A stretch of 42,279 bases of DNA from Candidatus Udaeobacter sp. (GTDB lineage: Bacteria; Verrucomicrobiota; Verrucomicrobiia; Chthoniobacterales; UBA10450), in assembly GCA_035258625.1 (NCBI GenBank), contig DATFXC010000150.1:1-42279 (forward strand), in the 5' to 3' direction. Position 1 is the stretch's first letter. The number at the start of each line of letters is the position of its first letter. Made by a program: the position numbers and the translations under genes. Shown here in pieces: positions 15,755 through 30,821 of this stretch. The notes beneath the pieces were generated by a model. It saw only the letters and a program-made list of their open reading frames with translations, was not told the DNA's origin and did not search any database.

Positions 15755-15841
15755 ATGAGCGAATTCATCATCATCGGTATTGTTCTGATTCTGGGTGTGA
15801 ACGGGCTGTACTCTCGGTTCTGTGAACAGGCGAAGGAGTGA
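15755..15841 (+). CDS. 28-aa single-TM mini-protein (MSEFIIIGIVLILGVNGLYSRFCEQAKE), first of three stacked ORFs ahead of kdpA
   Basis: Hand translated (below the track size cutoff). It has a hydrophobic helix and is a paralog of the next ORF. Its last codons contain the AAGGAG Shine-Dalgarno of the next ORF. Confidence 0.4.
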   Translation: MSEFIIIGIVLILGVNGLYSRFCEQAKE

Positions 15842-15845
15842 TCTC

Positions 15846-15929
15846 GTGAGTGACTTAATTTTTGTCGGAACAATCGTCGCGTTTTTTATGGTGGGCGCGC
15901 TGTACACGCTGCTTTGCGAAAAGCTGTAG
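15846..15929 (+). CDS. 27-aa single-TM mini-protein (VSDLIFVGTIVAFFMVGALYTLLCEKL)
   Basis: GTG start 7 nt after AAGGAG (15833-15838). It shares S-[ED]-x-I-x-x-G-x-[IV] ... G-x-LY-x-x-[FL]-CE with the preceding peptide. Its stop sits inside TAGGAGG, which supplies the SD for kdpF. Confidence 0.45.
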   Translation: MSDLIFVGTIVAFFMVGALYTLLCEKL

Positions 15930-15937
15930 GAGGATAA

Positions 15938-16021
15938 ATGGAAACCGTCGTCGTCGGCGTTATCGCGCTCTTGCTGTTTGTTTATCTGCTCGTCGCCATG
16001 ATCCGGCCTGAAAAATTCTAG
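15938..16021 (+). CDS. kdpF: K+-transporting ATPase subunit F
   Basis: METVVVGVIALLLFVYLLVAMIRPEKF is a single TM helix ending in the RPEKF/PExF signature of KdpF. AGGAGG SD lies 5 nt upstream, and the ORF ends 7 nt before kdpA. Confidence 0.8.
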   Translation: METVVVGVIALLLFVYLLVAMIRPEKF

Positions 16022-16028
16022 CGTCGAA

Positions 16029-17822
16029 ATGGAAGCGTCTGGTTGGATTCAATTTGCCATTTTCATCGTGGCACTAGCACTGATCACGAAGCCGATGGGC
16101 CTCTACTTAATGCACGTGCTCGACATGAACGGCACGACTTGGCTCGACCCGGTGCTACGGCCGTTAGAGCGCGCGACATACCGAGTCATGGGTGTCGACC
16201 CACGCAAGGAGCACAATTGGAAGCAATACACGCTTGCGATGCTGCTTTTCAGTCTTGTGGGCTGTTTGTTCACCTACGCGATCCTGCGCTTGCAATATTT
16301 TCTGCCACTGAATCCACAAAAATTGGCAGGAGTCAGTCCCGATCTTTCGTTCAACACCGCCGCTAGTTTTACCACCAACACCAACTGGCAGAATTACGGT
16401 GGGGAATCGACCATGTCGTACTTCTCGCAGATGGTCGGGCTGGCGTTTCACAATTTCGTTTCGGCCGCCATCGGGATCGCGATCGCGGCTGCGCTCGTTA
16501 GGGCGATCGCGCGGCATTCGGCAACAACACTCGGCAATTTCTGGATCGACCTGGTTCGGGTGACTTACTACCTGCTATTGCCGATCTGTCTGATATTCGC
16601 AGTCTTTCTGGTGTCGCAAGGAATGATTCAGAATTTCAAGCCGTACACCAAGGCCACACTGGTTGAGCCGATGAAGATCCAGGTGGAGAAAAAGAACGAC
16701 CAAGGCGAGGCGATCAAAGGACCGGATGGCAAGGCAGTCACAGAAGAGCAAACGGTAACCGATCAAAACATCGTGCAAGGCCCGATGGCTTCGCAGGTAG
16801 CGATCAAGATGCTCGGCACAAACGGCGGCGGATACGTGAACGCCAACGCAGCGCATCCGTTCGAGAATCCAACGCCGCTCTCAAATTTCTTCCAGATGCT
16901 GTCGATCTTCTCGATCGGGACCGGGCTCACCTACTACCTCGGCCGGATGGTGAAGAACCAGAAGCACGGCTGGACCGTCTGGGCCGCAATGTTGATCCTT
17001 TTTATCAGCGGTGTGCTGTTGTGTTGGTGGGCGGAGGCGAATGGTAATCCAATCCACCAGAGTCTCGGCGTTGCCGGCGGCAACATGGAGGGGAAAGAAG
17101 TCCGGTTCGGCGTTTTCAATTCTGCGCTCTTTGCCACGGTCACAACCGATGCTTCCTGCGGTGCGGTCAATTCGATGCACGACTCATTCACCGCGCTCGG
17201 CGGCTTCGTTCCATTGTTCAACATTCAGTTAGGCGAAATCATTTTTGGCGGTGTCGGTGCTGGCCTTTACGGGATGCTCGTATTCGTCGTGCTCGCGGTT
17301 TTCATCGCGGGTCTGATGGTTGGCCGCACCCCAGAATATCTCGGAAAAAAAATTGAAGCGTACGACGTAAAGATGGCGATGCTCTCATTGCTTATCCTTG
17401 CCATCTCGATTCTTGGTTTCGCCGCCTGGGCGATAGTCACGAAGTGGGGCTTGGATGGACGGAATAACATGGGCCCGCACGGGCTGAGCGAAATTCTTTA
17501 CGCATTCAGCTCCGGCGCAGGCAATAACGGCAGCGCATTCGCCGGTCTCTCAGGCAATACTCCGCCTTACAACACGACGCTTGGTCTCGACATGTTATTC
17601 GGCCGATTCCTCATGATCATCCCGATCATGGCGCTGGCGGGTTCGTTAGTGCAAAAGAAAGTCGCGCCGCCAAGCGTCGGCACGTTTCCAGTCTCCGGCG
17701 GCACGTTTCTCATTCTGCTGCTCGGAACAGTGCTTTTGATCGGCGCGCTCAACTATTTCCCTGCCCTGGCACTCGGACCAATCGTCGAACACTTCCTCAT
17801 GCAAGGCGGAAAACTTTTCTAG
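16029..17822 (+). CDS. kdpA: K+-transporting ATPase subunit A (channel-like subunit), canonical copy
   Basis: N-terminus ITKPMGLYL, plus all four canonical pore-loop signatures: TNTNWQNYGGE, LGTNGGGY, DASCGAVNSMHDS, NNGSAFAGLS. Confidence 0.95.
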   Translation: MEASGWIQFAIFIVALALITKPMGLYLMHVLDMNGTTWLDPVLRPLERATYRVMGVDPRKEHNWKQYTLAMLLFSLVGCLFTYAILRLQYFLPLNPQKLAGVSPDLSFNTAASFTTNTNWQNYGGESTMSYFSQMVGLAFHNFVSAAIGIAIAAALVRAIARHSATTLGNFWIDLVRVTYYLLLPICLIFAVFLVSQGMIQNFKPYTKATLVEPMKIQVEKKNDQGEAIKGPDGKAVTEEQTVTDQNIVQGPMASQVAIKMLGTNGGGYVNANAAHPFENPTPLSNFFQMLSIFSIGTGLTYYLGRMVKNQKHGWTVWAAMLILFISGVLLCWWAEANGNPIHQSLGVAGGNMEGKEVRFGVFNSALFATVTTDASCGAVNSMHDSFTALGGFVPLFNIQLGEIIFGGVGAGLYGMLVFVVLAVFIAGLMVGRTPEYLGKKIEAYDVKMAMLSLLILAISILGFAAWAIVTKWGLDGRNNMGPHGLSEILYAFSSGAGNNGSAFAGLSGNTPPYNTTLGLDMLFGRFLMIIPIMALAGSLVQKKVAPPSVGTFPVSGGTFLILLLGTVLLIGALNYFPALALGPIVEHFLMQGGKLF

Positions 17823-17860
17823 AGATGATCATTCAACGCATGATTCCATTCCGTCACATT

Positions 17861-18006
17861 TCATTAACACCCGACTTCAGTCGGGTGTTAGTAGCCACAC
17901 GGATGACGGAACCGTTTCAACGGTTTTCCGTTATAGGGGAAGCTGTTGAAACAGCTTTTAGCTCGTTAGGTCTGGAACACACCTGGCTGAAGCCAGGTGT
18001 TAATGA
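17861..18006. repeat. 146-nt composite palindromic element (four stem-loops in two nested inverted pairs) filling the kdpA-kdpB spacer
   Basis: Stem-loops at 17865-17890 (11 bp, loop TTCA), 17906-17931 (imperfect), 17940-17957 (7 bp, loop TGAA) and 17979-18000 (9 bp, loop TGAA). The outer arms TCATTAACACCCGACTTCAGTCGGGTGT and rc TCATTAACACCTGGCTTCAGCCAGGTGT are inverted copies. Confidence 0.85.
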
Positions 18007-18036
18007 GAGCGAAATGTTTCTGGTGACTCGAGCGTT

Positions 18037-20079
18037 ATGACACAAAAACCTGCATCGCTTTTCGACTGGAACATTGTCGCCCCGGCCATCGGCGACGCGT
18101 TCAAGAAACTGAACCCGCGTCTGATGGTGAAGAACCCGGTCATGTTTGTGACGATGGTCGGCGCTGCCCTAACGACCGTCGGGATCTTCACTGCTGAACC
18201 CGAACTGCGCGGCTTCGTAGCACAACTGGCGCTCTGGCTGTGGTTCACGGTGCTCTTTGCAAATTTTGCTGAAGCGGTCGCAGAGGGCCGTGGCAAAGCG
18301 CAAGCAGCAAGCCTGCGCCGTGCGCGCAAGGACACGATGGCCAGGCGCTTGATAAATGGTCGCGAAGAGAAAGTCCCCGCGCCCATATTGCAGAAGGGGA
18401 ATGTCGTCGTATGCGAAGCGGGCGACATCATCCCGGCGGACGGTGATGTTATAGAAGGGATCGCCAGTGTGGATGAAGCAGCGATTACCGGCGAATCCGC
18501 GCCCGTGATTCGTGAGAGCGGCGGCGACCGCAGTGCGGTGACTGGCGGCACACGCGTCTTGAGCGACCGAATTGTGATCCGAGTCACCGCAGATAAAGGC
18601 GCTGGTTTTCTCGACAAAATGATCGCGCTGGTCGAGGGCGCGCGTCGCCAGAAAACGCCGAATGAAATCGCGCTTACGATCCTGCTTGCCGCATTGACGT
18701 TCATTTTTCTACTCGTGTGTGTCACGCTCAAACCGTTCGGCATTTATTCGGGTGCGAACTTTTCGGTTCCGGTCCTGGTCGCGCTTCTGGTCTGTCTCAT
18801 TCCCACAACCATCGGGGGCTTGCTTAGCGCCATTGGAATTGCTGGAATGGACCGTGTGCTTCAACGCAACGTGCTCGCAATGAGCGGACGTGCAGTCGAA
18901 GCGGCGGGCGACGTTGACGTGTTGTTACTCGACAAAACCGGCACGATCACGCTCGGCAATCGCATGGCGGTCGCTTTTCATGCCGCACCCGGCGTCTCGC
19001 CCGATGATCTCGCGGCCTCTGCGCAGTTGAGCTCGCTGGCCGATGAAACGCCGGAAGGACGGTCGATAGTTGTGCTGGCGAAAGAGAAATTCGGATTACG
19101 CGCGCGCGAAATGCACGAGCTGGAGGCGACCTTTGTGCCGTTCACAGCGCAAACACGCATGAGCGGCGTCGACCTTCATGCCAATGGCTCGCAACCGACG
19201 ATGCGCGTACGCAAAGGCGCCGCGGAGGCGGTCCGCGGGTTTGTGGAATCATCGGGCGGAATTTTTCCGCAGCCGGTCACGAAAACAGTGGATGAGATTT
19301 CGCATCGCGGCGGCACGCCGCTCGTCGTTGCGTCCGACCTCCTGACGCTCGGCACGATCGAGCTAAAGGACGTTGTGAAAGGTGGAATCAAGGAACGGTT
19401 CGCGCAGTTGCGTAAAATGGGAATCAAAACGGTGATGATTACCGGCGATAATCCGCTGACCGCAGCAGCCATCGCAGCCGAAGCAGGCGTCGACGATTTC
19501 ATGGCACAAGCGACACCGGAACAAAAACTCAAACGCATCCGTGAGGAGCAAACCGAGGGTCACCTGGTTGCGATGACCGGCGACGGCACAAACGATGCGC
19601 CGGCGCTGGCGCAGGCCGACGTGGGCGTTGCCATGAACACCGGCACGCAAGCCGCCCGCGAAGCCGGCAACATGGTCGATCTCGACAGTAATCCGACCAA
19701 GCTGCTCGACATCGTCGAGATCGGGAAACAGATGCTGATCACGCGCGGTTCGCTCACTACGTTCAGCATCGCAAACGACGTCGCGAAATACTTCGCAATC
19801 GTACCGGCGATGTTGATGGCTAGGTTTTCCGAGATCGCGCCGCTGAACATCATGCACTTGCACAGTCCGACCAGTGCGATTCTCAGCGCCGTCATTTTTA
19901 ACGCGCTGATCATCGTCGCGCTGATCCCTCTGGCGTTGCGCGGCGTTGCTTACAAGCCAATGGGCGCGCTCGCCGTTTTGCAACGCAACCTGCTGATCTA
20001 TGGCTTCGGCGGTCTCATCGTTCCATTTATCGGAATCAAACTGATCGATTTGATTATCACTGCGCTTCACTTGGCCTAA
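18037..20079 (+). CDS. kdpB: K+-transporting P-type ATPase subunit B
   Basis: ITGESAPV (TGES), [10 protein letters not shown] phosphorylation motif, [18 protein letters not shown] hinge. Confidence 0.95.
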
Positions 20080-20083
20080 CGAC

Positions 20084-20668
20084 ATGAAAGAATTTTTTTC
20101 CCACATCCGCGGCGCAGTCGTATCGACGCTCGTGCTCGCAGTCGTCTGCTGCGGTCTTTACCCGCTCATCGTCTTTGGAGTTTCGCAGACACTCTTTCGC
20201 GATAAGGCCAACGGCAGTTTGATCACCGGTGCAGATGGGAGCGTCCGCGGTTCGAAGTTGTTAGGCCAGGCGTTCTCTGATCCGAAATATTTTCATCCGC
20301 GACCTTCGGTTGCCGGCAACGGCTACGACGCGACCAGTTCCGGCGGCAGTAATTTGGGGCCGACCTCACGCAAACTGGACGAGGCGATCAAAGAACGCAT
20401 CGCGGCGTATCGCGCGGAAAACAGTTTGAGCGAAACCGACTCTGTGCCTGCGGATGCAGTTACTGCATCCGGCAGCGGCCTCGATCCAGAGATCACCTTG
20501 CGTAATGCCGAGCTCCAGATCGCGCGTGTCGCTAAATCTCGGGGATTGAGCGAAGACAAAATCCGCGAGCTCGTCCAAAAAAACACCGATGGCCGTGATT
20601 TGGGAGTGTTCGGTGATCCCGGAGTCAATGTGCTGCAACTAAACGTCGCGCTCGATCAACAGCACTGA
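20084..20668 (+). CDS. kdpC: K+-transporting ATPase subunit C
   Basis: One N-terminal TM helix, then SGGSNLGPTS and ASGSGLDPEITL, which are KdpC signatures. Confidence 0.9.
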   Translation: MKEFFSHIRGAVVSTLVLAVVCCGLYPLIVFGVSQTLFRDKANGSLITGADGSVRGSKLLGQAFSDPKYFHPRPSVAGNGYDATSSGGSNLGPTSRKLDEAIKERIAAYRAENSLSETDSVPADAVTASGSGLDPEITLRNAELQIARVAKSRGLSEDKIRELVQKNTDGRDLGVFGDPGVNVLQLNVALDQQH

Positions 20669-20745
20669 TGAAGACACATCGAACAGACGTTTTCTTATTC
20701 GTTCCGATTTTTGTGGATTCGGTAGCGAACGCATCTCGCGTGCCG

Positions 20746-20837
20746 GCGATGGCGTCCTCGCCATCGCGAACTTCTCTCGATTCGCTCGGGTTTCAGCAAG
20801 TGTCGACAAATCCGAAACCAGCACGCGAGACGCGTGC
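20746..20837. repeat. two GC-rich stem-loops in the kdpC-porin spacer (REP-like)
   Basis: GCGATGGCG-tcct-CGCCATCGC (9 bp, 20746-20767) and GCACGCG-aga-CGCGTGC (7 bp, 20821-20837). Confidence 0.6.
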
Positions 20838-20915
20838 GCTACCCAACGATTTATTCTGGACACGGTTCGTCGATAATCCCCGCCGGAACCTACAGTGAAA
20901 ACAAGGAGGAAAAGC

Positions 20916-22571
20916 TTGAACACTAAAAAATGTCTGATCACGATCGTGTCGGCGATAGTTTTTACTGCTGTGGTGCACGCGCAGGGAACGTCTGAAGATT
21001 TGACCGCTGAACGACAGCAGCTTGCTCAATTGAAAGCCGAGCTCGATGCGCGCGAGAAAGCATTAGATAAACGCGAGAAAATATTGGCTGAAAAAGAAGG
21101 GGCCACGGCAAATTCCACTGTGCAGTCCCGCGAGAAAAGAAAAGCCAAGGACACGCACAAGCCTCAGCAAACCATAGCGCAGAGCCAGGAAGAACAGGCG
21201 AAAGCGGCGCGCGCCGAAAAGAAATTGCATGAACCGTTTTTCCAACGTTTGGACGAAGCTTTTTTGGAACAGTTAGGCACGCCAGCCTACGTTCCGCCTG
21301 ATCCCAACGCGCCAAACCCACGCCGCATTCCGCCGCCACCCTTCGATTCACCGCCGTTCCCTTCGGGTGACTGGCAAATTGGCGGTACTCCGATCATAGG
21401 AGATCCCGGTGAGCTTCCGCCGGGTCCTCTGATGCAGGCGATTTATGAAGGCCCAGGCGGCGATGCGTGGAAGAAAAGCAAAATCCAACTTTATGGCTGG
21501 GTCAATTTCTCCGGCAATATCAGCACCTCGCACCCATCAAACAAGAGTGAGAACGGAAACTTTCCGTTGATTTACGATCTGCGCCCAAACCGGATGGAGC
21601 TGAATCAGATTGTTCTGTACCTCGAGCGGTTGCCTGATACAAATCAAATGGACCACATCGACTGGGGTTTTCGTATCTCAGCTCTCTATGGGCTCGACTA
21701 CCGATTCACGACGACCTACGGCTTTCTGAGCGATCAATTGTTAATACACAATAGTTACTCCGGCTTCGACATGCCGATGATTTATCTCGATCTCTACATT
21801 CCTTTCGTAGCTCAGGGAATGAATATCCGGATAGGGAGAATCATTTCCGAGCCGGACATCGAAGCCCAACTGGCGCCGAATAATTTGATGGCGACTCACT
21901 CGCTCCTTTATGGCTTTGATAACTACTGTCAGGAAGGAATTTTCACCACGACTAAACTCAACGATCAGTGGACGATTCAAGCCGGAATCTCGGATGGGAC
22001 TGACGTCGCTCTTTGGCAGAATGATCCGGGCCGGCAGGTAACGGGCACTGTGATGGTTCAGTGGATTTCACCCAGCCAGATGGATTCGATTTACGCCGGT
22101 GACAATAATTTTAACAACGGCAAATTTGGCTACAACAATCTCCAGCAGATCGTTGGCACCTGGACGCACAAGTTCAATGACAAGATTTATACCGCGACCG
22201 AGGCGTGGTACATGTACATGAACGACGCAATCGACCATCCGACCGAGGAGGTGCCATTCCAAGGCGGTTCATTTCCGGTGAGGAACGGCTACGCACCGGA
22301 ATGGGCGGTGCTGAACTACACAATGTTCCGGCTTGCCCCGAATACCTTTTTCACCGTACGAAACGAATACTTTAAAGACAAGGTTGGGAGCCGGACTGGG
22401 TTTGCCACCGATTATTCCGAGCACTCGATTGGCATCACCTGGTGGCCTTGTAAGCTGATCACCATTCGCCCCGAGCTTCGCTACGACCATTCTTACGCTG
22501 AACGGGCGTTCGATAACGGAACCAGACATAATCAGCTGGTCTTCACGACCGACATGATCTTTCACTTCTAA
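20916..22571 (+). CDS. outer-membrane beta-barrel porin (OmpL-like/bbp2-type) with N-terminal coiled coil
   Basis: Signal peptide (CLITIVSAIVFTAVVHA), then the coiled coil LAQLKAELDAREKALDKREKILAEKE. Alternating beta-strand pattern with aromatic girdle; terminal ...TTDMIFHF ends in Phe. TTG at 20916 follows AAGGAGG (20903-20909); the track start is GTG 20895. Confidence 0.75.
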   Translation: MNTKKCLITIVSAIVFTAVVHAQGTSEDLTAERQQLAQLKAELDAREKALDKREKILAEKEGATANSTVQSREKRKAKDTHKPQQTIAQSQEEQAKAARAEKKLHEPFFQRLDEAFLEQLGTPAYVPPDPNAPNPRRIPPPPFDSPPFPSGDWQIGGTPIIGDPGELPPGPLMQAIYEGPGGDAWKKSKIQLYGWVNFSGNISTSHPSNKSENGNFPLIYDLRPNRMELNQIVLYLERLPDTNQMDHIDWGFRISALYGLDYRFTTTYGFLSDQLLIHNSYSGFDMPMIYLDLYIPFVAQGMNIRIGRIISEPDIEAQLAPNNLMATHSLLYGFDNYCQEGIFTTTKLNDQWTIQAGISDGTDVALWQNDPGRQVTGTVMVQWISPSQMDSIYAGDNNFNNGKFGYNNLQQIVGTWTHKFNDKIYTATEAWYMYMNDAIDHPTEEVPFQGGSFPVRNGYAPEWAVLNYTMFRLAPNTFFTVRNEYFKDKVGSRTGFATDYSEHSIGITWWPCKLITIRPELRYDHSYAERAFDNGTRHNQLVFTTDMIFHF

Positions 22572-22577
22572 CGATCT

Positions 22578-22682
22578 ATGAATGACTTTCCGCTCAGATT
22601 TCTTATCCTAGTGCTGCTTATAGTGCTACTCAGTGTGCCTATGATTTTCGAGACAAGAGGCTCTAAGCGTCGGCAGCCTTAG
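22578..22682 (+). CDS. possible 34-aa single-TM mini-protein (MNDFPLRFLILVLLIVLLSVPMIFETRGSKRRQP) upstream of the kdpA paralog
   Basis: Hand translated; hydrophobic core followed by a basic tail. No convincing SD. Confidence 0.25.
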   Translation: MNDFPLRFLILVLLIVLLSVPMIFETRGSKRRQP

Positions 22683-22776
22683 CTACAGCAGCGCGGCCTT
22701 TTTTTGTTCAGGACCTTCGTAATACCGAAGCAGCCATTTGGCCGGTCGCGCCTATGTTTGCTTTCACGAATTTAAG

Positions 22777-24465
22777 ATGAACGCGAATGCGCTTCAGGCT
22801 GGGCTCTTTGTGCTTGTCGTGGTGCTTCTCGTCAAACCGGTCGGTGCGTACCTTGAACGTGTTTTCGAACGACGGCAGACTCTGCTCGATCCGATTCTTC
22901 TCCCAATAGAGCAACTAATCCACCGGCTTGTTGGAACCGATTGTCAACGCGAAATGGATTGGAAATGCTACTCGGTAGCGTTCGGTATTTTCGGCGCAGC
23001 CAACATCGTCCTTCTCTATTTGGCACTGCGCTCGGAGGCATGGTTGCCGTGGTTCTTTCCGAAAGTCATGACGACGCCGATGACGCCGGATCTCGCGGCT
23101 AACACGGCAGTAAGCTTTGCAACTACGACTACGTGGCAAGCCTACGCCGGCGAAACAACAATGAGTTACTTCAGTCAGCTTTTGCTGGCAGGGCAAAACT
23201 TTTTGGCTGGCGCAGCGGGTCTCGCTGTCGGCATCGCTTTCATTCGCGGTTATGCCCGAGAAAGAACTACGGAGCTCGGCAACTTCTGGGTGGATCTGAT
23301 CTGTGCGGTTTTGTGGGTGTTATTGCCGGTTTCGTTAGTGGGGAGCTTGTTTCTGATTGCGCAAGGCGTGCCGATGAATTTCCGGGCTTACACAGTTGCG
23401 CACACGTTGGAAGGTACCACGCAGATCATCGCCCACGGTCCGGTTGCGGCACTGGAGTTTATCAAAAATCTCGGGACTAACGGTGGCGGCTTTTTCAACG
23501 CGAATGGTGCGCACCCGTTCGAGAATCCTACACCGCTGACCAATTTTATCGAACTGCTTGCCATCGCCGTCATTCCGGCAGCGCTCACGCACACCTTCGG
23601 ACGCATGGTGGGCCGGTCGCGCGACGGTTGGGTAATTTTCTGGACGATGACGGCCCTCTTTGTGGCGGGATTGCTCTTGTGCACTTGGGCTGAAACGAGT
23701 GCTCCCGGACTAACGAAGCAGCTTGTTGGCGGCAATATGGAAGGAAAAGAGGTTCGCTTCGGTGTAAGCGGATCGGTGCTTGCTGCAGTTGTGACTTCAA
23801 ATGGCGCGACCGGTTCCTACAACTCGATGCACGACAGCTTTCAGCCGCTCGGAGTGACGGTGCCTTTGGTCAACCTGCTCCTCGGTGAAATCGTGTATGG
23901 CGGTCTCGGTGCGGGACTTTATGGGATGATCTTTGTAGCGTTGATAGCCCTTTTTGTCGGCGGCCTGATGATTGGCCGCACACCGGAGCATCTTGGTAAG
24001 CAAATTGGCCCGCCAGAAATGAAAATTATCGCCATTTATACGCTCGTCGGTCCTGTCACGGTCCTGGCGTTGACGGCGCTCGCGGTCATTACAAAACCCG
24101 GCCTCGCAGGATTGACGATAAACAGTGGGCCTCATGGATTTACGGAAATCCTATTTGCTTACGCGAGCGCCTTTGCCAACAACGGCCAAAGCATGGCCGG
24201 TCTTAGCGCTAACAATATTTTCTATAACACAACAACCATAATCGCGATGCTGGCAGGCCGATACATCCTTGCGGTGTTGGCTCTTTTGCTCGCTGGCCGG
24301 TTCGCCGCAATGTCACGACGGCCTCCCAGTTCCGGTACGATGCCTTCCGACGGGTTTGTCTTCGGCGTGTTGTTAGCCGGAACGACACTGTTGCTTGGCG
24401 CCCTAAACTTTCTCCCAGCCCTCGCGCTGGGCCCGATTGTCGAGCAGTTCTCAACTCATTCTTAA
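22777..24465 (+). CDS. orphan KdpA paralog (K+-transporting ATPase A-subunit family) with diverged pore loops
   Basis: Collinear with kdpA along its length (LVKPVGAYL, GETTMSYFSQ, LGTNGGGFFNANGAHPFENPTP, NMEGKEVRFG, MHDSF, GRTPEHLGK, GPHGFTEILF, ALALGPIVE). Loops 1, 3 and 4 read TTTTWQ, SNGATGSYN and NNGQSMAG. ATG at 22777 is preferred over TTG 22738. Confidence 0.9.
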   Translation: MNANALQAGLFVLVVVLLVKPVGAYLERVFERRQTLLDPILLPIEQLIHRLVGTDCQREMDWKCYSVAFGIFGAANIVLLYLALRSEAWLPWFFPKVMTTPMTPDLAANTAVSFATTTTWQAYAGETTMSYFSQLLLAGQNFLAGAAGLAVGIAFIRGYARERTTELGNFWVDLICAVLWVLLPVSLVGSLFLIAQGVPMNFRAYTVAHTLEGTTQIIAHGPVAALEFIKNLGTNGGGFFNANGAHPFENPTPLTNFIELLAIAVIPAALTHTFGRMVGRSRDGWVIFWTMTALFVAGLLLCTWAETSAPGLTKQLVGGNMEGKEVRFGVSGSVLAAVVTSNGATGSYNSMHDSFQPLGVTVPLVNLLLGEIVYGGLGAGLYGMIFVALIALFVGGLMIGRTPEHLGKQIGPPEMKIIAIYTLVGPVTVLALTALAVITKPGLAGLTINSGPHGFTEILFAYASAFANNGQSMAGLSANNIFYNTTTIIAMLAGRYILAVLALLLAGRFAAMSRRPPSSGTMPSDGFVFGVLLAGTTLLLGALNFLPALALGPIVEQFSTHS

Positions 24466-24580
24466 CCAATGAATGACGTCATGGTGTGACTTGCGTTTAC
24501 GATGAGGCCGCGAACGTGATCCGTACGCACGATTAGATGTGCGATTTCAAAGAGTTGGTGAAATTCTTCCCGTATCACCA

Positions 24581-24976
24581 ATGACCGCCGAATTATGGCT
24601 CTTAGCAGCTAGCGTTGGTTTGGGGCTGGTGCATTTGATTGCCGCATCACATCTGATTAGCTGGCAGCGCGGTTATCGCTGGACGGCCAGCAGCCGTGAT
24701 GATGAAGTCGCGCCTTTGCGCGGGTTAGCAAATCGCGTTGATCAGGCAACCACGAATTTCCTGGAGACGTTCCCGTTCTTCGCTGCCCTTGTTCTGATCG
24801 CTCATGTCACCGACCATCATGGTTTACTTACCCTTTTGGGAGCGCATCTATATTTTTGGGCTCGGGTAGGCTACTTGCTGGCCGCTGCACTCGGTTACAG
24901 TCTCGTGCGCTCCGCCATTTTCTGGAACTCGGCGTTGGTTGGCATGATTCTCGTTTTTGTGGCGCTTTTACCGTAG
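24581..24976 (+). CDS. MAPEG-family membrane protein
   Basis: ~130 aa with four TM segments. RVDQATTNFLETFPFFAALVL matches the MAPEG R-x3-N-x2-E-x2-P-x-F core. Confidence 0.7.
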   Translation: MTAELWLLAASVGLGLVHLIAASHLISWQRGYRWTASSRDDEVAPLRGLANRVDQATTNFLETFPFFAALVLIAHVTDHHGLLTLLGAHLYFWARVGYLLAAALGYSLVRSAIFWNSALVGMILVFVALLP

Positions 24977-25060
24977 AGCCGGAGGCCATCGGCTCGATTA
25001 CGAAATAAGTCCAGCTTGCTTGCCGCGCCACCTTGCCGTGGCTAATCTTTGTCTGGTTAG

Positions 25061-25327
25061 ATGGTAATCGGGGCGATACTCACACTGATACTCGGCTTGC
25101 TCATCGCTGTGCCAGCGGCGATTTACTGTTTCAAGCCCGCCATAATTGTTCGCCAAGCGAGCGAAACTGCGCATCGTTCGTTTAGGTTGCTACACTTTGC
25201 GCTTCCTATTGCGCCGCGCGATGGCCGCATCACCGCGCGACAAGTCCGTAGCACCGGCCTAGGTCTTTTTTTGCTTAGCGCCTGGTTTCTGCTGGTCGCA
25301 TTTCTGGCTATCATTGCACAGCACTGA
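25061..25327 (+). CDS. hypothetical two-TM membrane protein
   Basis: 88-aa ORF with hydrophobic segments at both ends; no motif or clear SD. Confidence 0.3.
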   Translation: MVIGAILTLILGLLIAVPAAIYCFKPAIIVRQASETAHRSFRLLHFALPIAPRDGRITARQVRSTGLGLFLLSAWFLLVAFLAIIAQH

Positions 25328-25903
25328 TGTTGCGCCGACCATCTGACCAATCGCTGCAGCCAACCGCAGGCGAGCGTGGATGACCAGCGAGAGCGACGAT
25401 GTGATCAAAAGAGTGCGTTCGAATCAGTGCAGGCCAAAGCAGACGGACAAACGTGAGCGGCGTGTAATCGTTGTGGGGTTTGTCACCAGGAACGCGAAAT
25501 GTGAGGCGTTAACTGCCGCATTTACATGACCAAAATCTATCTTTCGGTCCTCTCCCCGGGTGCGCCAAGTGCACAAGAGATCGCTCGTTGGCAAAGAAAT
25601 CCGTAGAGGAATTCGATTACTAAAACGGAAGATAAATCGCGCAATTCACACCGAACGAGAAAACGCTGTTATGTACCCTTTGTTGGCACGGCGGTTCCCA
25701 CCAGATTCAAATGAAGCCTTGTTACTCCGTTTGGAGGGCCGAGGTGCAATGCGCCGTGTCAAAAGATTGAAAAGGACCACTCGCCGAGTTGGACGCGATT
25801 TGGCGTCCTGCTTCGAGAACATGGTGGTTTTACGGGCGGCACTTGCATACGTTGTACACACCTCGAGGATGGTTATCGAAATGGAAAACCTAAAATCTAG
25901 GAT

Positions 25904-26833
25904 ATGGCCACAATGTCTGTTTTAGCACGGCGTACGTGCATCAATCGCCCTACGAAGAAGTATCCGCGTAACGCGGCGCGATCCGTCACCAGAATGCTCA
26001 TTTGCTCTGTGGGTGTGGCGTTCGGAGATCCGATTTTTGCCGACCCGAGTCCCACGCCGACGCCAAACAAGTCGCAATACACGCTCTTTAATCCAACGCC
26101 GGTCGATGTGCGGCGTCCTTACAACACAGATCGACCGAGCAAGACTGACAGTCCATACACGATCGACGCCGGAGTTTTTCAAATCGAAAGCGATATTCCG
26201 AACTGGACGCTCGATTACCAGGGAGGCGTACGGACTCGCTCCTGGATCGTTGGCAACAGCAACTTCAAACTTGGCCTAACGAATTGGATGGATTTCCAGG
26301 TGTTCCCTCAATTTTACGTTAACAAGCGCACCAGCGGATCCGGCTTCGGAAAACCGCTTGAGCAGGACGGCTTCGGCGATACGACCGTGCGCCTGAAAAT
26401 CAATCTCCTCGGCAACGACTCCGGAAAATTAGCCATCGGCTTCCTTTCGTCATTGAAAATACCCACGAACACCGGCCATACCGGCAACCATGTCTGGGAA
26501 CCCGGCTTTGAATTACCTGTGAATTACTCGTTACCGTGGGGTTTCACGTTGTTCGCCCAGACGAGGATCGACATTCTCGATAAAGCTCGCAGCAGCAACA
26601 TGCAGGTGCAGTGGCAAAATCCGATCGGACTCTCCCGGACAATAGTCGGCAAATTGAGCGGGTATGTTGAATTCTACGACGCGGTCAGTTCGGGACCCTG
26701 GGTCGGCACACTGGACACCGGTTTGATTTATCAAGTGACGCCAAACTTCTCGGTGGACGTAAACTCGTTTTTTGGACTGACCGACAGCGCTCCCGATTAC
26801 AATGTATTTAGCGGCTTCGGCTATCGCTTTTGA
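25904..26833 (+). CDS. outer-membrane beta-barrel channel of the 'MetA-pathway of phenol degradation'-like transporter family
   Basis: NPTPVDVRRPYNTDRPSKTDSPYTIDAGVFQIE is the family's N-terminal signature, and the C-terminus FSGFGYRF ends in Phe. The true start may be ATG 25994 (MLICSVGVAFGDPIFA signal peptide). Confidence 0.7.
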   Translation: MATMSVLARRTCINRPTKKYPRNAARSVTRMLICSVGVAFGDPIFADPSPTPTPNKSQYTLFNPTPVDVRRPYNTDRPSKTDSPYTIDAGVFQIESDIPNWTLDYQGGVRTRSWIVGNSNFKLGLTNWMDFQVFPQFYVNKRTSGSGFGKPLEQDGFGDTTVRLKINLLGNDSGKLAIGFLSSLKIPTNTGHTGNHVWEPGFELPVNYSLPWGFTLFAQTRIDILDKARSSNMQVQWQNPIGLSRTIVGKLSGYVEFYDAVSSGPWVGTLDTGLIYQVTPNFSVDVNSFFGLTDSAPDYNVFSGFGYRF

Positions 26834-26842
26834 TTCGGTTCG

Positions 26843-26870
26843 AACCGGTTTGCCTAACCGGTTTAGTCTT
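26843..26870 (+). terminator. possible weak intrinsic terminator or operator: two AACCGGTTT copies able to pair
   Basis: AACCGG-tttgcctaa-CCGGTT (6-bp stem) followed by TAGTCTTT. The T-tract is poor. The 8-mer AACCGGTT is itself palindromic and occurs at 26843 and 26856. Confidence 0.25.
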
Positions 26871-26875
26871 TAGCG

Positions 26876-27310
26876 ATGCGAAAGCCCTTAGGACATATTG
26901 CGCAGGTGCGAAGTTCAGGAGTTCACCGCTGGTTCGCGGCGTTTTTTGCTTTTGGCGCAACGATGTGCGCTCTCACCGTCAGTTTACTTCTGTTTCCTGG
27001 TAGCGCGCTCGATTGGTTATGGCGACTAAATCCTGATGCGCGACTCGCGTTTCAATCATTGCGCTATTGGTCGTTGGTTCTCATGGGGACCGTCGGAACG
27101 GCGTGTTTGTTCGCAGCGATCGGATTATGGCGTGCTAGACCGTGGGGCACGTGGCTGGCCTTAATAATTCTCTCGGTTAACATGCTCGGTGACCTCACAA
27201 ATGTGTTCGCTCGTCACGACTACCGTGGCTTGATCGGAGTGCCTGTCGCGGGGATAATGATTTTTTTCCTACTCGCATGCGGTCGACGCTCGAAAAGTTT
27301 TCGTACTTGA
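26876..27310 (+). CDS. hypothetical four-TM membrane protein
   Basis: 144-aa ORF with four hydrophobic segments; no recognisable family. Confidence 0.45.
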   Translation: MRKPLGHIAQVRSSGVHRWFAAFFAFGATMCALTVSLLLFPGSALDWLWRLNPDARLAFQSLRYWSLVLMGTVGTACLFAAIGLWRARPWGTWLALIILSVNMLGDLTNVFARHDYRGLIGVPVAGIMIFFLLACGRRSKSFRT

Positions 27311-27447: not shown

Positions 27448-30147
27448 ATGATTGAAACGGAGCGGCCCGATCCAGACGCACTTCTCGCGCAGATGAAGCG
27501 CGCAGAAGCAAAGTCCACTCGCGGCAAGCTCAAGATCTTCTTTGGGATGTCGCCGGGCGTTGGGAAGACGTACGCGATGCTTCAGGCTGCGCGCCAAAAG
27601 CAAGTCGAAGGCTGCGAGGTGGTGGTGGGTATTGTCGAGACTCACGGGCGCAAAGACACGGAGGCATTACTCGAAGGAATGCCAATCATGCCGCGGCTGC
27701 AGGTCGAATACCGCGGCACCACACTTACCGAAATGGATCTGGATGCGATTCTGACCTGGCATCCCGAACTCGCAGTGGTTGATGAGCTCGCGCACACCAA
27801 CGCGCCCGGCTCGCGTCATCCAAAACGTTATCAGGACGTGCTCGAGCTGCTGGATGCGGGTATCAATGTTTATACGACGCTTAACGTCCAGCACGTCGGC
27901 AGTCGCAGCGACACGGTTCGCCAAATCACCGGTGCGCCGGTCAGTGAGACCGTTCCCGATTCGGTTCTCGATCTGGCGGATGAAATTGTTCTGGTCGATC
28001 TGACACCCGAACAACTTTTGTCGCGGCTAGCCGAGGGAAAAGTTTATCTCGGCGAACGCGCAGAATGGGCGGCAAAAAATTTCTTTCGGGAGAGCAACCT
28101 TACCGCTTTGCGTGAAATGGCGCTGCGCGTCGTTGCAGAGCACGTGGACCGCGATCTGCGCGAGATCATGTCGCAGCAAAGAATACCGGGTCCGTGGAAA
28201 AGCGCCGATCGGCTGCTGGTCGCTGTCAGCGCCAGTCCGTACTCGGAGCGATTGATCCGGTATACCCGGAGGTTGGCCTCGTCGATGGAGGCGTCATGGA
28301 TTGTGGTGAACATCGAAGGGCCCCGGTTGCTTTCGCAGGAGGAACAAACGCGACTAACTCGCTATATCGCGCTGGCGCGGCAGCTCGGCGCGGAGGTGAT
28401 TACGACTCCGGGCAGGGATGTTGCTGAAGCGTTGCTGCGTGTCGCCCGACAAAACAATGTTACGCAAATCATAATGGGGAAACCGCTGGGGACGCCGTGG
28501 TTTAGTTTTTTTAAGCCTGATCTGTTGCGCTGGCTCATGCGCCATAGCGGCAACATCGATATTCACATGATTCCGTCCGAAGAAGGCGCACAGCCGAGAC
28601 GTGATTCGCTCGAGGAACGTCTGGCGCGCACGCCTTGGCAGGAGTTTGGAATCGCGCTTGGGATCGCGGTTGTCGTGACGGGCTTCTCATTGTCAGTCTT
28701 TAATTACATTGGTTATTGGGCAGTCGCGCTCTTCTATTTGTTCGCAGTCGTAATCGCTGGAATGCGATTGCGTCGCTGGCCCACATTTTTCCTGGCTGCA
28801 CTTAGCGCGCTGCTCTGGAACTTTCTGTTCATTCCGCCACGCTTCACGTTTTACATCAGCAAATTCGAAGACTTCATGATGTTCGGCGCTTACTTCGTCA
28901 TCGCTGTTGTCATCGGACATCTGGCGACCCAATTGCACGAACGCGAACAAGCCGAACGCCGCCGGGAAGAACGTGCCACCGCTTTGTATCGTTTGACACG
29001 TGCGCTAGCTGCTAGCCGTGATCTTAGTGAAGCCCTTCCCAAAGTGTTGCAGTTGATCAGAGATTTCTTTGAGGCGGATGCAGCAGTTTGGTTTCGTGAT
29101 GACAATGGCCTGACCCAACATCCCGCGAGCACGTTTGTGCCGTCCAAAAAGGACGAAAGCGTCGCAATGTGGGCCTTTCAAAAAAAACAAGCCGCCGGAA
29201 AATCAACGGATACTCTTCCTGATTCAGAATGCTTGCACATTCCGCTGGTCGCCGGTGATCGCGCTGAGGGCGTGCTAAGTGTGCGGCTAAAGACCTTGCC
29301 CACCCTGGAGCAGCGCGAATTACTCGATGCATTCGCTGCGCAACTCGCTGTTTTTGTGAACAAGGAACGCGCCCTGCAGGAGAGCCGCGAAGCTCAGGTC
29401 GCCCGCGAATCGCAGAAACTACAAAAGGTGCTTTTCGATTCCGTGTCGCATGAGTTAAAGACGCCACTCGCCGCGATGAGCGCCGCATTGCAACAACCAT
29501 GCCCCAATAGCTCTGAGTTACAACAAGCGGTGCGGCGTCTGACCCACACAGTCGATAATTTGCTCGACGCAACGCGTCTGGAATCTGGTCTTCTCCAACC
29601 GGTCCGCGAGTGGTGCGACCCAGGCGAGCTTGTGCACGAAGCGGTTACCGCTTCAGGATTGAAAGAAGGCGACGTGCAAATCAACATCGCAAACAACCTA
29701 CCGGCGGTATCTGTGGACTCAGGCCTGATTCAGCAGGCGTTCAATGCATTGCTCTCGAACGCGATCAGTTATGGCAAAAGCGATCAACCGATTGAAGTGA
29801 ACGCCACCCGCGATGATTCCATGCTGGTCATTTCGGTTGCCGATCGGGGCGTTGGTCTCGAGGCGGGAGAAGAAACAAGAATATTCCAAAAGTTTTATCG
29901 TGGTCCGCGCTCTCGACCTGGTGGTATCGGCCTCGGTTTGTCGATTGCGCGACAATTGGTCGAGGCGAATGGCGGTGAGATTGTTGCGCAGAACCGTCAG
30001 GGCGGCGGTGCGGTCTTTTCCATTCGTTTACCTGTCAGCGAAGCAATGCGACTTCCTTCTGGGGAATCTGTGTCGCTAGGAGAAGTTATGGAGGCGGATG
30101 GATCCGCCGTTAAGGTTGCAGCGGCGCGGGTTTCATCTGCTAAATGA
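27448..30147 (+). CDS. kdpD: sensor histidine kinase KdpD
   Basis: N-terminal KdpD domain (GKLKIFFGMSPGVGKTYAML), USP-like segment, four TM helices, GAF-like region, H-box SVSHELKTPL, and HATPase G-boxes (DRGVGL, GIGLGLSIA). Confidence 0.95.
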   Translation: MIETERPDPDALLAQMKRAEAKSTRGKLKIFFGMSPGVGKTYAMLQAARQKQVEGCEVVVGIVETHGRKDTEALLEGMPIMPRLQVEYRGTTLTEMDLDAILTWHPELAVVDELAHTNAPGSRHPKRYQDVLELLDAGINVYTTLNVQHVGSRSDTVRQITGAPVSETVPDSVLDLADEIVLVDLTPEQLLSRLAEGKVYLGERAEWAAKNFFRESNLTALREMALRVVAEHVDRDLREIMSQQRIPGPWKSADRLLVAVSASPYSERLIRYTRRLASSMEASWIVVNIEGPRLLSQEEQTRLTRYIALARQLGAEVITTPGRDVAEALLRVARQNNVTQIIMGKPLGTPWFSFFKPDLLRWLMRHSGNIDIHMIPSEEGAQPRRDSLEERLARTPWQEFGIALGIAVVVTGFSLSVFNYIGYWAVALFYLFAVVIAGMRLRRWPTFFLAALSALLWNFLFIPPRFTFYISKFEDFMMFGAYFVIAVVIGHLATQLHEREQAERRREERATALYRLTRALAASRDLSEALPKVLQLIRDFFEADAAVWFRDDNGLTQHPASTFVPSKKDESVAMWAFQKKQAAGKSTDTLPDSECLHIPLVAGDRAEGVLSVRLKTLPTLEQRELLDAFAAQLAVFVNKERALQESREAQVARESQKLQKVLFDSVSHELKTPLAAMSAALQQPCPNSSELQQAVRRLTHTVDNLLDATRLESGLLQPVREWCDPGELVHEAVTASGLKEGDVQINIANNLPAVSVDSGLIQQAFNALLSNAISYGKSDQPIEVNATRDDSMLVISVADRGVGLEAGEETRIFQKFYRGPRSRPGGIGLGLSIARQLVEANGGEIVAQNRQGGGAVFSIRLPVSEAMRLPSGESVSLGEVMEADGSAVKVAAARVSSAK

Positions 30148-30821
30148 ATCCCGTCGCGCTAATTATTGACGACGAGGTTCAGATCCGGCGGTTGCTGCGG
30201 CTCGTTCTTGAGGGCGAGAACTACAAGGTGTATGAAGCCGAGACCGGACAGCAGGGGCTAATGGAAATCGCCACGCGCAAACCGGACGCAGTCCTGCTGG
30301 ATCTCGGCCTGCCGGACCTTGATGGACTGCAGATACTAAAACGCTTGCGAGAATGGAGCGAAGTCGCGGTCATTGTGCTGACCGTGCGCGATGATGTGCA
30401 GGAAAAAGTGGCGGCGCTGGATGCTGGCGCGGACGATTACATCACCAAGCCATTTAGTACTCCTGAATTGCTTGCGCGCCTCCGCGCCGCTCAACGCAAG
30501 ACACGGCCGTCCGAAGAAGTCTCAGTATTTAAAAATGGTGATTTGGTCGTCGATCTTACGGCGCATGTGGTCACGCGCGCAGGCCGTGAAATTAAATTGT
30601 CCGCCACCGAATATGCGTTGCTCCGCTTATTCGTGAAACACCCGGGACGCGTTCTCACGCATCGCCACATCTTACGCGAAATCTGGGGCCCGAAGTCCGA
30701 GGAGCATCGACAATACCTGCGTGTTTACGTCACGCATCTGCGCCAAAAGATCGAGACCGATCCGGCAAAACCGTCTTTAATTCAGACTCAGCCCGGGATT
30801 GGTTACCGGTTCACAGGTTAA
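30144..30821 (+). CDS. kdpE: OmpR-family response regulator KdpE
   Basis: Receiver domain (LIIDDE...LLDLGLPDLDG...KP) plus a winged-helix output (LSATEYALLRLF...GIGYRF). The ATGA overlaps the kdpD stop. Confidence 0.9.
   Translation: MNPVALIIDDEVQIRRLLRLVLEGENYKVYEAETGQQGLMEIATRKPDAVLLDLGLPDLDGLQILKRLREWSEVAVIVLTVRDDVQEKVAALDAGADDYITKPFSTPELLARLRAAQRKTRPSEEVSVFKNGDLVVDLTAHVVTRAGREIKLSATEYALLRLFVKHPGRVLTHRHILREIWGPKSEEHRQYLRVYVTHLRQKIETDPAKPSLIQTQPGIGYRFTG

Follow-up and report, generated by a model that had tools for sequence, protein, structure and literature searches.

A distinct KdpA subfamily with a rewritten ion filter, represented in the kdp locus of Candidatus Udaeobacter

The + strand kdp locus of Candidatus Udaeobacter sp. 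analysed here is carried by a stretch of 42,279 nucleotides (contig DATFXC010000150.1 of assembly GCA_035258625.1; hereafter the window, meaning this whole stretch). It encodes two proteins of the KdpA family: the KdpA of a canonical kdpFABC operon (KdpA1) and a second homolog, here designated KdpA2 (kdpA2, 22777..24465). Comparative analysis outlined a monophyletic clade of KdpA2-type proteins in which the residues of the ion filter are consistently rewritten with respect to canonical KdpA. The reading favoured by these comparisons is that the product of kdpA2 is functional and belongs to a KdpA subfamily that is distinct and monophyletic. A tentative case, to which we give a little under an even chance, can further be made for KdpA2 as an alternative ion-entry subunit that joins a KdpC-type cap and the KdpB already present, and so lends the Kdp pump a different affinity or different kinetics. 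No description of a KdpA paralog clade, of KdpC-KdpA fusions or of a TTTT/NNGQ filter was found in the searchable literature, the coverage of which excludes subscription-only papers, and the KdpA2 branch is apparently undescribed. Both NCBIfam and Pfam assign KdpA2 proteins to plain KdpA.

The kdpA2 open reading frame (ORF) is intact, extending from an ATG at 22777 to a stop codon ending at 24465, and encodes 562 amino acids. The original prediction had correctly recognised a second full-length KdpA at this site, but its figure of 563 residues counted the stop codon. The product is collinear with E. coli KdpA (E = 1e-141, residues 8-558 against 9-556) and, as had been proposed, with the canonical copy in the window, to which it aligns over its full length at 45% identity. 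The PF03814 profile covers positions 2-548 of 548 in KdpA2 (E = 7e-202), and the TIGR00680 model returns a score of 610 bits against a cut-off of 388. The closest named relative is a Candidatus Udaeobacter protein, and the related genome loci belong to Chthoniobacterales. An AlphaFold model of KdpA2 alone (pTM 0.80, mean pLDDT 71) bore out the expected KdpA fold of 10 transmembrane segments in four M1-P-M2 repeats, with Foldseek matches at TM 0.83 to 5MRW_A, 7NNP_A and 6HRA_A, compared with TM values of only 0.41-0.51 to KtrB, TrkH and HKT. Since the filter loops are modelled at pLDDT <50, the model was used for fold assignment only.

The integrity of the gene also bears on the possibility that KdpA2 is a redundant or decaying kdpA duplicate, a reading for which the canonical copy 5 kb upstream is the single argument. 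Comparison among four Chthoniobacterales orthologs yields dN/dS values of 0.08-0.10 for kdpA2; between the window and the related locus L001, the corresponding values are 0.064 for kdpA1, 0.042 for kdpB, 0.093 for kdpC and 0.090 for the neighbouring porin gene. The kdpA2 gene is under purifying selection (dN/dS ~0.09), which excludes the pseudogene status that the original prediction had named as a way in which it might fail. The loop motifs are moreover kept by at least 120 protein clusters at 81% identity or more, and signature residues remain fixed across about 12 phyla at a mean identity of 66%. The decaying-duplicate reading was rejected on these dN/dS and conservation data, and we regard its probability as negligible.

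The extent of the subfamily was evident in both protein and genome collections. A search of a 90%-identity protein collection returned at least 120 clusters at 81-100% identity to KdpA2, and among the 120 clusters listed the loop motifs TTTTWQ, SNGATGSYN and NNGQSMAG occur in 104, 84 and 89, respectively. Among the best 150 of 10,642 KdpA-family matches (50%-identity representatives), the combined signature is confined to KdpA2-like sequences. A scan of one genome per species with the back-translated TTTTWQAY motif identified at least 120 loci, and all locus figures given here refer to the loci listed. A true KdpA2-type gene is present in 119 of the 120 (all but L122), with products 54-82% identical to KdpA2 and always closer to it than to KdpA1. 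Loops 3 and 4 are co-conserved in these proteins, as (V/T)TSN(G/T)(A/S)TGS and NNGQ, though they lie outside the search pattern. The hosts span about 12 phyla and are mostly soil bacteria. Acidobacteriota account for the majority, many of them metagenome-assembled genomes (MAGs) from bog, palsa, fen and peat. They are accompanied by Chloroflexota (including cultured Ktedonobacter and Ktedonosporobacter), Planctomycetota, Verrucomicrobiota, Gamma- and Betaproteobacteria, Methylomirabilota/Rokubacteria, Nitrospirota, Armatimonadota, Myxococcota, Syntrophobacteraceae, Obscuribacteraceae and Eisenbacteria. A plasmid database contributed one isolate copy, on a megaplasmid of Ralstonia sp. RRA.1.

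In a tree built by neighbour-joining only, with clade members preselected by their loop-1 motif, 68 full-length KdpA2-type proteins separated from 109 canonical 50%-identity representatives with a bootstrap of 100/100. Mean identity is 66% within the clade, 40% between the clade and canonical KdpA, and 38% among canonical proteins. The idea that the paralog belongs to a conserved clade carrying the same loop substitutions is thus borne out by the tree and by a fixed signature, and on these sequence data KdpA2 constitutes a monophyletic clade with a consistently rewritten ion filter.

To place the substitutions, the E. coli KdpA sequence was rebuilt from alignments, with its numbering checked against Q116, G232, E370 and R493, and the KdpA2 clade was compared column by column with the 109 canonical representatives, without preselecting positions. 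Pore loop 1 of the window protein (23122..23139) reads TTTTWQ, aligning with E. coli T111-Q116 and presenting N112T and N114T. Pore loop 2 (LGTNGGGFFNAN, 23470..23505) is unchanged and keeps G232, the preceding M227 being replaced by a clade-specific Asn. Pore loop 3 (23797..23823) reads SNGATGSYN, with T340S, A341N, S343A, C344T and A346S around a conserved G345, and pore loop 4 (24178..24201) reads NNGQSMAG, in which N466, N467 and G468 are kept and S469Q, A470S and F471M are found. The motif coordinates and the retention of loop 2 were exact in the original prediction, and the alignment to E. coli numbering agrees with it that the changes (N112T, N114T, S343A, C344T, A346S and S469Q) fall at true filter positions. 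The window protein does not carry the canonical loop-1 TNTNWQ and loop-4 NNGS(A) signatures, presenting TTTTWQ and NNGQ instead, and contains all the filter glycines (G232, G345 and G468) as well as the mouth residue Q116.

The claim that the altered positions are otherwise invariant did not hold for loop 3. The unusual loops are 1 and 4, where canonical KdpA presents N112 in 84%, N114 in 67% and S469 in 92% of representatives, whereas 100%, 100% and 94% of clade members, respectively, have another residue there. Threonine occupies 112 and 114 in every clade member, as opposed to 4% and 1% of canonical proteins, and Q469 is found in 94% of the clade and in 0% of canonical KdpA. Loop 3 is variable among the same 109 representatives: position 344 is occupied by N (39%), T (23%), S (14%) or C (8%), and position 343 by S, G, A or T. 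The truly unusual residues of the KdpA2 filter are hence limited to N112T, N114T and S469Q, plus T340S and A341N. Across the whole protein, conservation among canonical KdpAs reaches 80% or more in 88 columns, of which the clade keeps 81; the seven lost include N112, T340 and S469. Residues that are fixed in the clade and rare in canonical KdpA cluster in and around the pore loops (N112T, N114T, Q222L, M227N, S240G, T340S, A341N and S469Q), with further fixed changes at V376L, A420Y and I497A and bulky-to-Gly/Ala replacements at 141, 148 and 185.

The residues with a defined role that were compared here were taken from PMC12629597, PMC6255902 and PMC8385062. The clade keeps Q116, W115, T113, G232, G345, G468, N231, N466 and N467 at ~100%, and the clade and the window protein both keep the vestibule charge pair E370 (99%) and R493 (100%) as well as R400 (99%). 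The last of these, which in E. coli KdpA forms a salt bridge to the P domain of KdpB (PMC6255902), has its equivalent in an intact GRTPE(Y/H)LGK motif (GRTPEHLGK in the window protein, 23974..24000). Along the tunnel leading to KdpB, the seal residues L422 and L541 are kept and V496L is found in 99% of the clade; F386, which is Y or F in 78% of canonical proteins, is replaced by A, V, I or T, and I421 by A or T.

The tight S3 site is held responsible for K+ affinity and selectivity in the literature, and this site is probably preserved in KdpA2. The parts that would have been remodelled are the outer filter and mouth (114 and 469, beside Q116), the hydrophobic end of the tunnel, and the inner-end hydroxyl ligands, of which 112 would gain one and 343 lose one. 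The pattern points to a shift in apparent affinity, in conduction or in tolerance of the environment, and not to a wholly new ion. The S3-forming positions keep their glycine or backbone context (G232, G345, G468, T113, N231, N466 and N467), and a different affinity or different kinetics is accordingly more probable than a switch of ion.

The original prediction had described kdpA2 as an orphan. This description does not hold, for the gene lies between a kdpFABC-porin block and kdpDE, in an order conserved in relatives. The arrangement in the window is kdpF-A-B-C, porin, a mini-ORF, kdpA2, three inserted genes, kdpD-E and a permease/Usp gene. The canonical operon encompasses kdpF (15939..16022; 27 aa, METVVVGVIALLLFVYLLVAMIRPEKF; TIGR02115, 35.1 bits against a cut-off of 26.85) and kdpA1 (16029..17822; 597 aa), whose four pore loops read TNTNWQ, LGTNGGGYVNAN, ASCGAVN and NNGSAFAG. 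These are followed by kdpB (18037..20079) and kdpC (20084..20668), each of them, according to a tblastn search of the window, its sole copy there. The window kdpC product is of canonical type (DAVTASGSGLDP). A gene for an outer-membrane beta-barrel porin (BBP2/OmpL-like; 20895..22571, PF07642, E = 1.5e-34) stands directly 5' of kdpA2, as it also does in the related loci L001, L002, L004 and L074. The two-component regulator genes kdpD (27448-30147) and kdpE (30144-30821) together span 27448..30821. The order kdpA-B-C-porin-kdpA2-kdpD-E-permease/Usp is kept in L001 and L002 and partially in L004 and L074, with kdpD directly 3' of kdpA2 in L001, L002, L004 and L108. Compared with L001 and L002, the window presents three extra genes between kdpA2 and kdpD (24539-27310), which encode a MAPEG protein (24539-24976), a Phenol_MetA_deg-type outer-membrane barrel (25904..26833, PF13557) and a DUF2127 protein (26876-27310).

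Association with kdp genes extends beyond the Chthoniobacterales. Context was counted in the 119 listed loci, each an arbitrary 8-kb block. At least one kdp gene lies within the block in 49 of them, kdpB or a canonical kdpA in 18, and clear kdpA1-B-C-kdpA2 operons are present in L015, L016, L084 and L112. A co-oriented kdpC gene directly 5' of kdpA2 was detected in 29, with gaps of 0-150 nt. Two Gammaproteobacteria bog MAGs (L036 and L056) show the reversed order, kdpA2 then kdpC, the pair being preceded in L056 by a fragment of kdpB and a KdpD-like gene; such loci could be rearranged operons with KdpA2 as the A subunit nearest kdpB. Neighbour annotation covered recurrent families only, which include DUF2254 (17 loci), BBP2 porins (13) and Phenol_MetA_deg barrels (7, from other phyla), and no RCK/TrkA/KtrA-like partner was identified among them. 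The BBP2 and Phenol_MetA_deg families both adjoin kdpA2 in the window, and members of the latter also occur directly 5' of kdpA2-type genes in Acidobacteriota. The DUF2254 membrane proteins (~450 aa; e.g. L023 3410-4765) are usually encoded directly downstream of the kdpA2-type gene, mainly in Acidobacteriota.

In 14 of the listed loci, the kdpC gene preceding kdpA2 is not itself preceded by kdpB, and the genes upstream were unrelated in all seven cases inspected. No cryptic ATPase was seen there when the sequences were read by eye, with no domain search, the genes recognised being housekeeping ones such as phosphoglycerate kinase and sugar-nucleotide dehydratase. The KdpC proteins encoded next to kdpA2 in this manner (KdpC2) cluster across phyla at 60-83% identity, with the common motif IDAVTRSGSGLDP, and apart from the KdpC proteins encoded after kdpB; the single KdpC of the window is not of the KdpC2 type. 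This clustering suggests that KdpC2-KdpA2 is a laterally moving two-gene module. The two proteins also occur as fusions, with at least 20 clusters at 90% identity (P0122 and 19 others) encoding products of 771-823 aa that combine PF02669 with PF03814, and all of these clusters carry both signatures. One fusion gene is arranged tail-to-tail with a kdpF-A-B-C operon, which is complete and encodes a KdpC of its own. A further KdpC-KdpA fusion, P0153 (806 aa representative), presents a canonical-type filter (SNTNWQ, NNGSA), so that the C-then-A fusion is not limited to the KdpA2 clade. The KdpC partner, the wide spread across phyla and the small residues at the KdpA/KdpB tunnel seal go beyond the content of the original prediction. 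In a further, rather unlikely conjecture, KdpC2-KdpA2, as separate genes or as a fusion, would be a mobile two-part cartridge among soil bacteria of many phyla, serving either as a KdpB-independent cation channel or as a second filter for the resident KdpB, a filter possibly tuned to acidic, NH4+-rich or K+-poor soils.

The original prediction had offered two functional readings of the paralog, an alternative A subunit for KdpB and a free-standing channel of the superfamily of K+ transporters (SKT) type. Under the alternative-subunit reading, which we hold tentatively and rate slightly below an even chance, KdpA2 would assemble with KdpB and with a KdpC-type cap. In the window this cap would be supplied by the one KdpC that the neighbouring kdpFABC operon encodes, and in many other lineages by a dedicated or fused KdpC2. 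KdpA2 would thereby retain the parts known to serve K+ uptake from the periplasm and its handover to KdpB (G232, G345, G468, Q116, E370/R493 and the R400 motif), with fixed changes in the outer filter and mouth (N112T, N114T, S469Q, S343A, T340S, A341N and M227N) and in the tunnel (V496L, I497A and a loss of bulk at 386 and 421). The Kdp P-type pump would in this way exist in a second isoform, still directed at K+ and differing in apparent affinity, turnover or soil tolerance; assembly with KdpB, K+ as the substrate and the direction of the kinetic change are all inferred. This reading is favoured because the residues that contact KdpB and line the vestibule are kept, because kdpA2 is embedded in kdp operons and regulon loci, and because it is partnered with KdpC. 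Several observations weigh against it. A KdpA2-type gene never occupies the slot before kdpB (none of the 119 listed loci, nor the window), and 18 of the 35 well-flanked loci (those with 2.5 kb or more of sequence upstream and 1.5 kb or more downstream) have no kdp neighbour in the 8-kb block. Two fusion genes have no other kdp gene within 10 kb, and the Ralstonia megaplasmid copy none within 12 kb. None of the 14 loci with a lone kdpC2 has a KdpF-like ORF upstream of that gene. Two of the six KdpA tunnel-seal residues facing KdpB (F386 and I421) lose bulk, which could mean either a re-tuned tunnel or a lost interface. The structural model, with its poorly resolved filter loops, is silent on filter geometry, and kdpFABC-A2 operons would provide a single B for two competing A subunits, an awkward stoichiometry for a simple swap.

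Much of this evidence speaks for the second reading, in which KdpA2, usually capped by KdpC, would act without KdpB as a passive or membrane-potential-driven K+ channel or uniporter of SKT type, having reverted to or stayed a channel, and in which co-localisation with kdp genes would merely reflect a shared K+ economy. The half or so of well-flanked loci without a kdp neighbour, the lone kdpC2-kdpA2 pairs adjoining unrelated housekeeping genes, the lone fusions and the lone Ralstonia copy all fit such a channel. So do the clustering of KdpC2 across phyla in the manner of a mobile two-gene module, the absence of KdpF from lone modules, the unoccupied kdpA slot among the listed loci, and the clade-fixed bulky-to-small changes at 141, 148, 185 and 497 and at the KdpB-facing seal (386 and 421). 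The D3M2 loop and coupling motif (GEIVYGGLGAGLYGM ... GRTPEHLGK) are nevertheless of KdpA type, and a KdpA pore is sealed below this loop (PMC6255902). R400, whose sole known role is contact with KdpB, is conserved at 99%, the recurrent neighbour families contain no RCK/TrkA/KtrA-like partner, and the fold is much closer to KdpA (TM 0.83) than to KtrB or TrkH (TM 0.41-0.51). No KdpA is known to transport without KdpB. The channel is considered doubtful, although it is the main rival of the alternative subunit.

The choice between subunit and channel is partly independent of a third possibility, in which the rewritten filter would, with any partner, make KdpA2 carry NH4+, Rb+/Cs+ or Na+ in place of K+ or in addition to it. 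Position 114 lies in the loop-1 "filter glycine" register and is Thr in 100% of clade members, S469Q is seen nowhere outside the clade, and the smaller tunnel residues could admit a larger or more hydrated ion. In class I plant HKT transporters, a Ser at the equivalent position gives Na+ selectivity. The G232D mutant provides a precedent in which the filter sets selectivity and KdpB pumps Rb+ and NH4+, but changes of the Q116 type at the mouth shift affinity and not selectivity (PMC12629597). The positions whose backbone carbonyls build S3 keep their residues and glycines, canonical K+-specific KdpAs already vary at 114 (N, D, G or S) and at 344 (N, T, S or C), and kdpA2 is linked to the K+-sensing kdpDE system and to kdpFABC, all of which make a change of ion improbable. 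The proximity of kdpD could alternatively indicate that KdpA2 is a non-transporting K+ sensor or co-sensor signalling to KdpD, since kdpD directly follows it in the four loci mentioned above and kdpD/E occur in several others. This possibility appears very remote: kdpD/E are not nearby in most listed loci, the vestibule, tunnel and R400 apparatus is conserved, and partnership with KdpC points to a pump-like assembly.

Upstream of kdpA2, the window contains a 34-aa single-transmembrane (TM) mini-ORF (22578..22682, MNDFPLRFLILVLLIVLLSVPMIFETRGSKRRQP). Its existence, pointed out in the original prediction, is confirmed by the contigs of two close relatives, L001 and L002, in which its frame, start, stop, length, hydrophobic core and basic tail are kept at 50% amino acid identity and a dN/dS of 0.33. 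The suggestion that it might be a KdpF-like partner of KdpA2 did not withstand scrutiny. The mini-ORF matched neither KdpF (TIGR02115) nor any other NCBIfam or Pfam model, the window has its canonical kdpF at 15939-16022, and the mini-ORF is confined to the closest relatives, being missing in L004 and L074, where the porin-kdpA2 spacer is ~50 nt, and in every other phylum examined. Apart from this Udaeobacter-type mini-ORF, no KdpF-like small ORF was found upstream of kdpA2 in 65 loci. The mini-ORF is plausibly a real small membrane protein of the Udaeobacter-type lineage, and the sequence comparisons indicate that it is neither KdpF nor a general KdpA2 partner.

Just 5' of the kdpA2 start codon, a stretch at 22722..22776 retains ~80% identity to L001, against a background of almost saturated synonymous sites (dS ~0.9). 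It is evidently non-coding, as most of the differences in frame change the amino acid and L001 does not keep the TTG at 22738, and it is possible that it constitutes a promoter or 5' untranslated region (UTR) element. An Rfam scan of the whole window detected no known RNA or riboswitch upstream of kdpA2, and in a scan for promoter and terminator consensus sequences around the gene nothing exceeded shuffled expectation.

Other features were observed in the canonical part of the locus. KdpA1 contains a charged insertion of ~30-35 aa (KIQVEKKNDQGEAIKGPDGKAVTEEQTVTDQ, aa ~214-245) between repeats D1 and D2, which has no counterpart in E. coli KdpA or in KdpA2. Between kdpA1 and kdpB (17825-18036) lies a 212-nt insert made up of four hairpins, in which the palindrome ACACCYGRCTKMAGYCRGGTGT occurs twice (17867-17888 and 17979-18000; chance expectation 0). 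The kdpA-kdpB gap in L001 is only 18 nt, and the insert looks like a small repetitive or MITE-like element placed within the operon. A tiny single-TM ORF immediately 5' of kdpF (15847-15930, VSDLIFVGTIVAFFMVGALYTLLCEKL) has a version in L001 (~3255-3338, MSDLIFIGVIIAFFLLGALYTVLCEKL) and no family match, and a further one (15756-15842) is present in the window only. A 76-aa ORF (20668-20898) that overlaps the kdpC stop codon (ATGA) and likewise matches no family shares its N-terminus and a C-terminal FWT(R/W)F(V/I)DNPR with a 65-aa called gene at the same site in L001, the middle having diverged. Directly 3' of kdpE, the amino-acid-permease/Usp fusion gene (30834-32804) keeps this arrangement in L001 and L002 and may belong to the kdp regulon.

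The significance of the KdpA2 clade lies in the standing of KdpFABC as a textbook hybrid of channel and P-type pump, whose extreme affinity and selectivity for K+ are ascribed to the KdpA filter. The clade represents a natural experiment in which outer-filter, mouth and tunnel positions are varied with respect to affinity, selectivity and conduction, and in which the residues coupling KdpA to KdpB are kept. What KdpC does in the pump is unsolved, and a KdpC2 that is dedicated or fused to KdpA2 has a direct bearing on this problem. Because KdpA2 genes so often lie apart from kdpB, one may also ask if any KdpA is able to function in the absence of the ATPase. Current annotation pipelines label these proteins KdpA, following an equivalog match, and under this single label genome-based inferences on K+ uptake miss the distinction in abundant soil groups, among them Candidatus Udaeobacter, Acidobacteriota, Ktedonobacteria and Planctomycetota.

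Among known systems, KdpA2 is most similar to the KdpA subunit of E. coli KdpFABC (5MRW, 6HRA, 7NNL; TIGR00680, PF03814), with which it is collinear and shares the fold and the four pore loops, as well as linkage to kdpB, kdpC and kdpD/E and a KdpC partner. Unlike canonical KdpA, it forms a separate clade with TTTT in place of TNTN and NNGQ in place of NNGS, together with S343A, T340S, A341N and M227N in the filter region and, in the tunnel, V496L, I497A and the smaller side chains at 386 and 421. Its gene also stands outside the F-A-B-C slot, often with its own or a fused KdpC2 and, among the listed loci, often distant from kdpB. The E. coli filter mutants Q116R and G232D established that affinity and selectivity are determined by the pore loops, KdpB itself being promiscuous (PMC12629597). 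The same pore loops are changed in KdpA2, yet both Q116 and G232 are kept and the substitutions lie at 112, 114, 343, 344 and 469, for which no characterisation was found in the KdpA literature examined. With KtrB, TrkH and HKT, KdpA2 has in common the architecture of four membrane-pore-membrane (MPM) repeats and, if the channel reading were right, a membrane subunit that stands alone, but KtrB and TrkH use RCK partners (KtrA and TrkA), which are not among the recurrent neighbours of KdpA2. Duplications of the whole kdp operon occur in staphylococci, where a second kdp operon is carried on SCCmec, and in cyanobacteria, which have two operons. Those genomes encode more than one KdpA, as here, but in full FABC sets with canonical filters, whereas in the KdpA2 loci only the A gene, or C plus A, is duplicated, and with a distinct filter signature.

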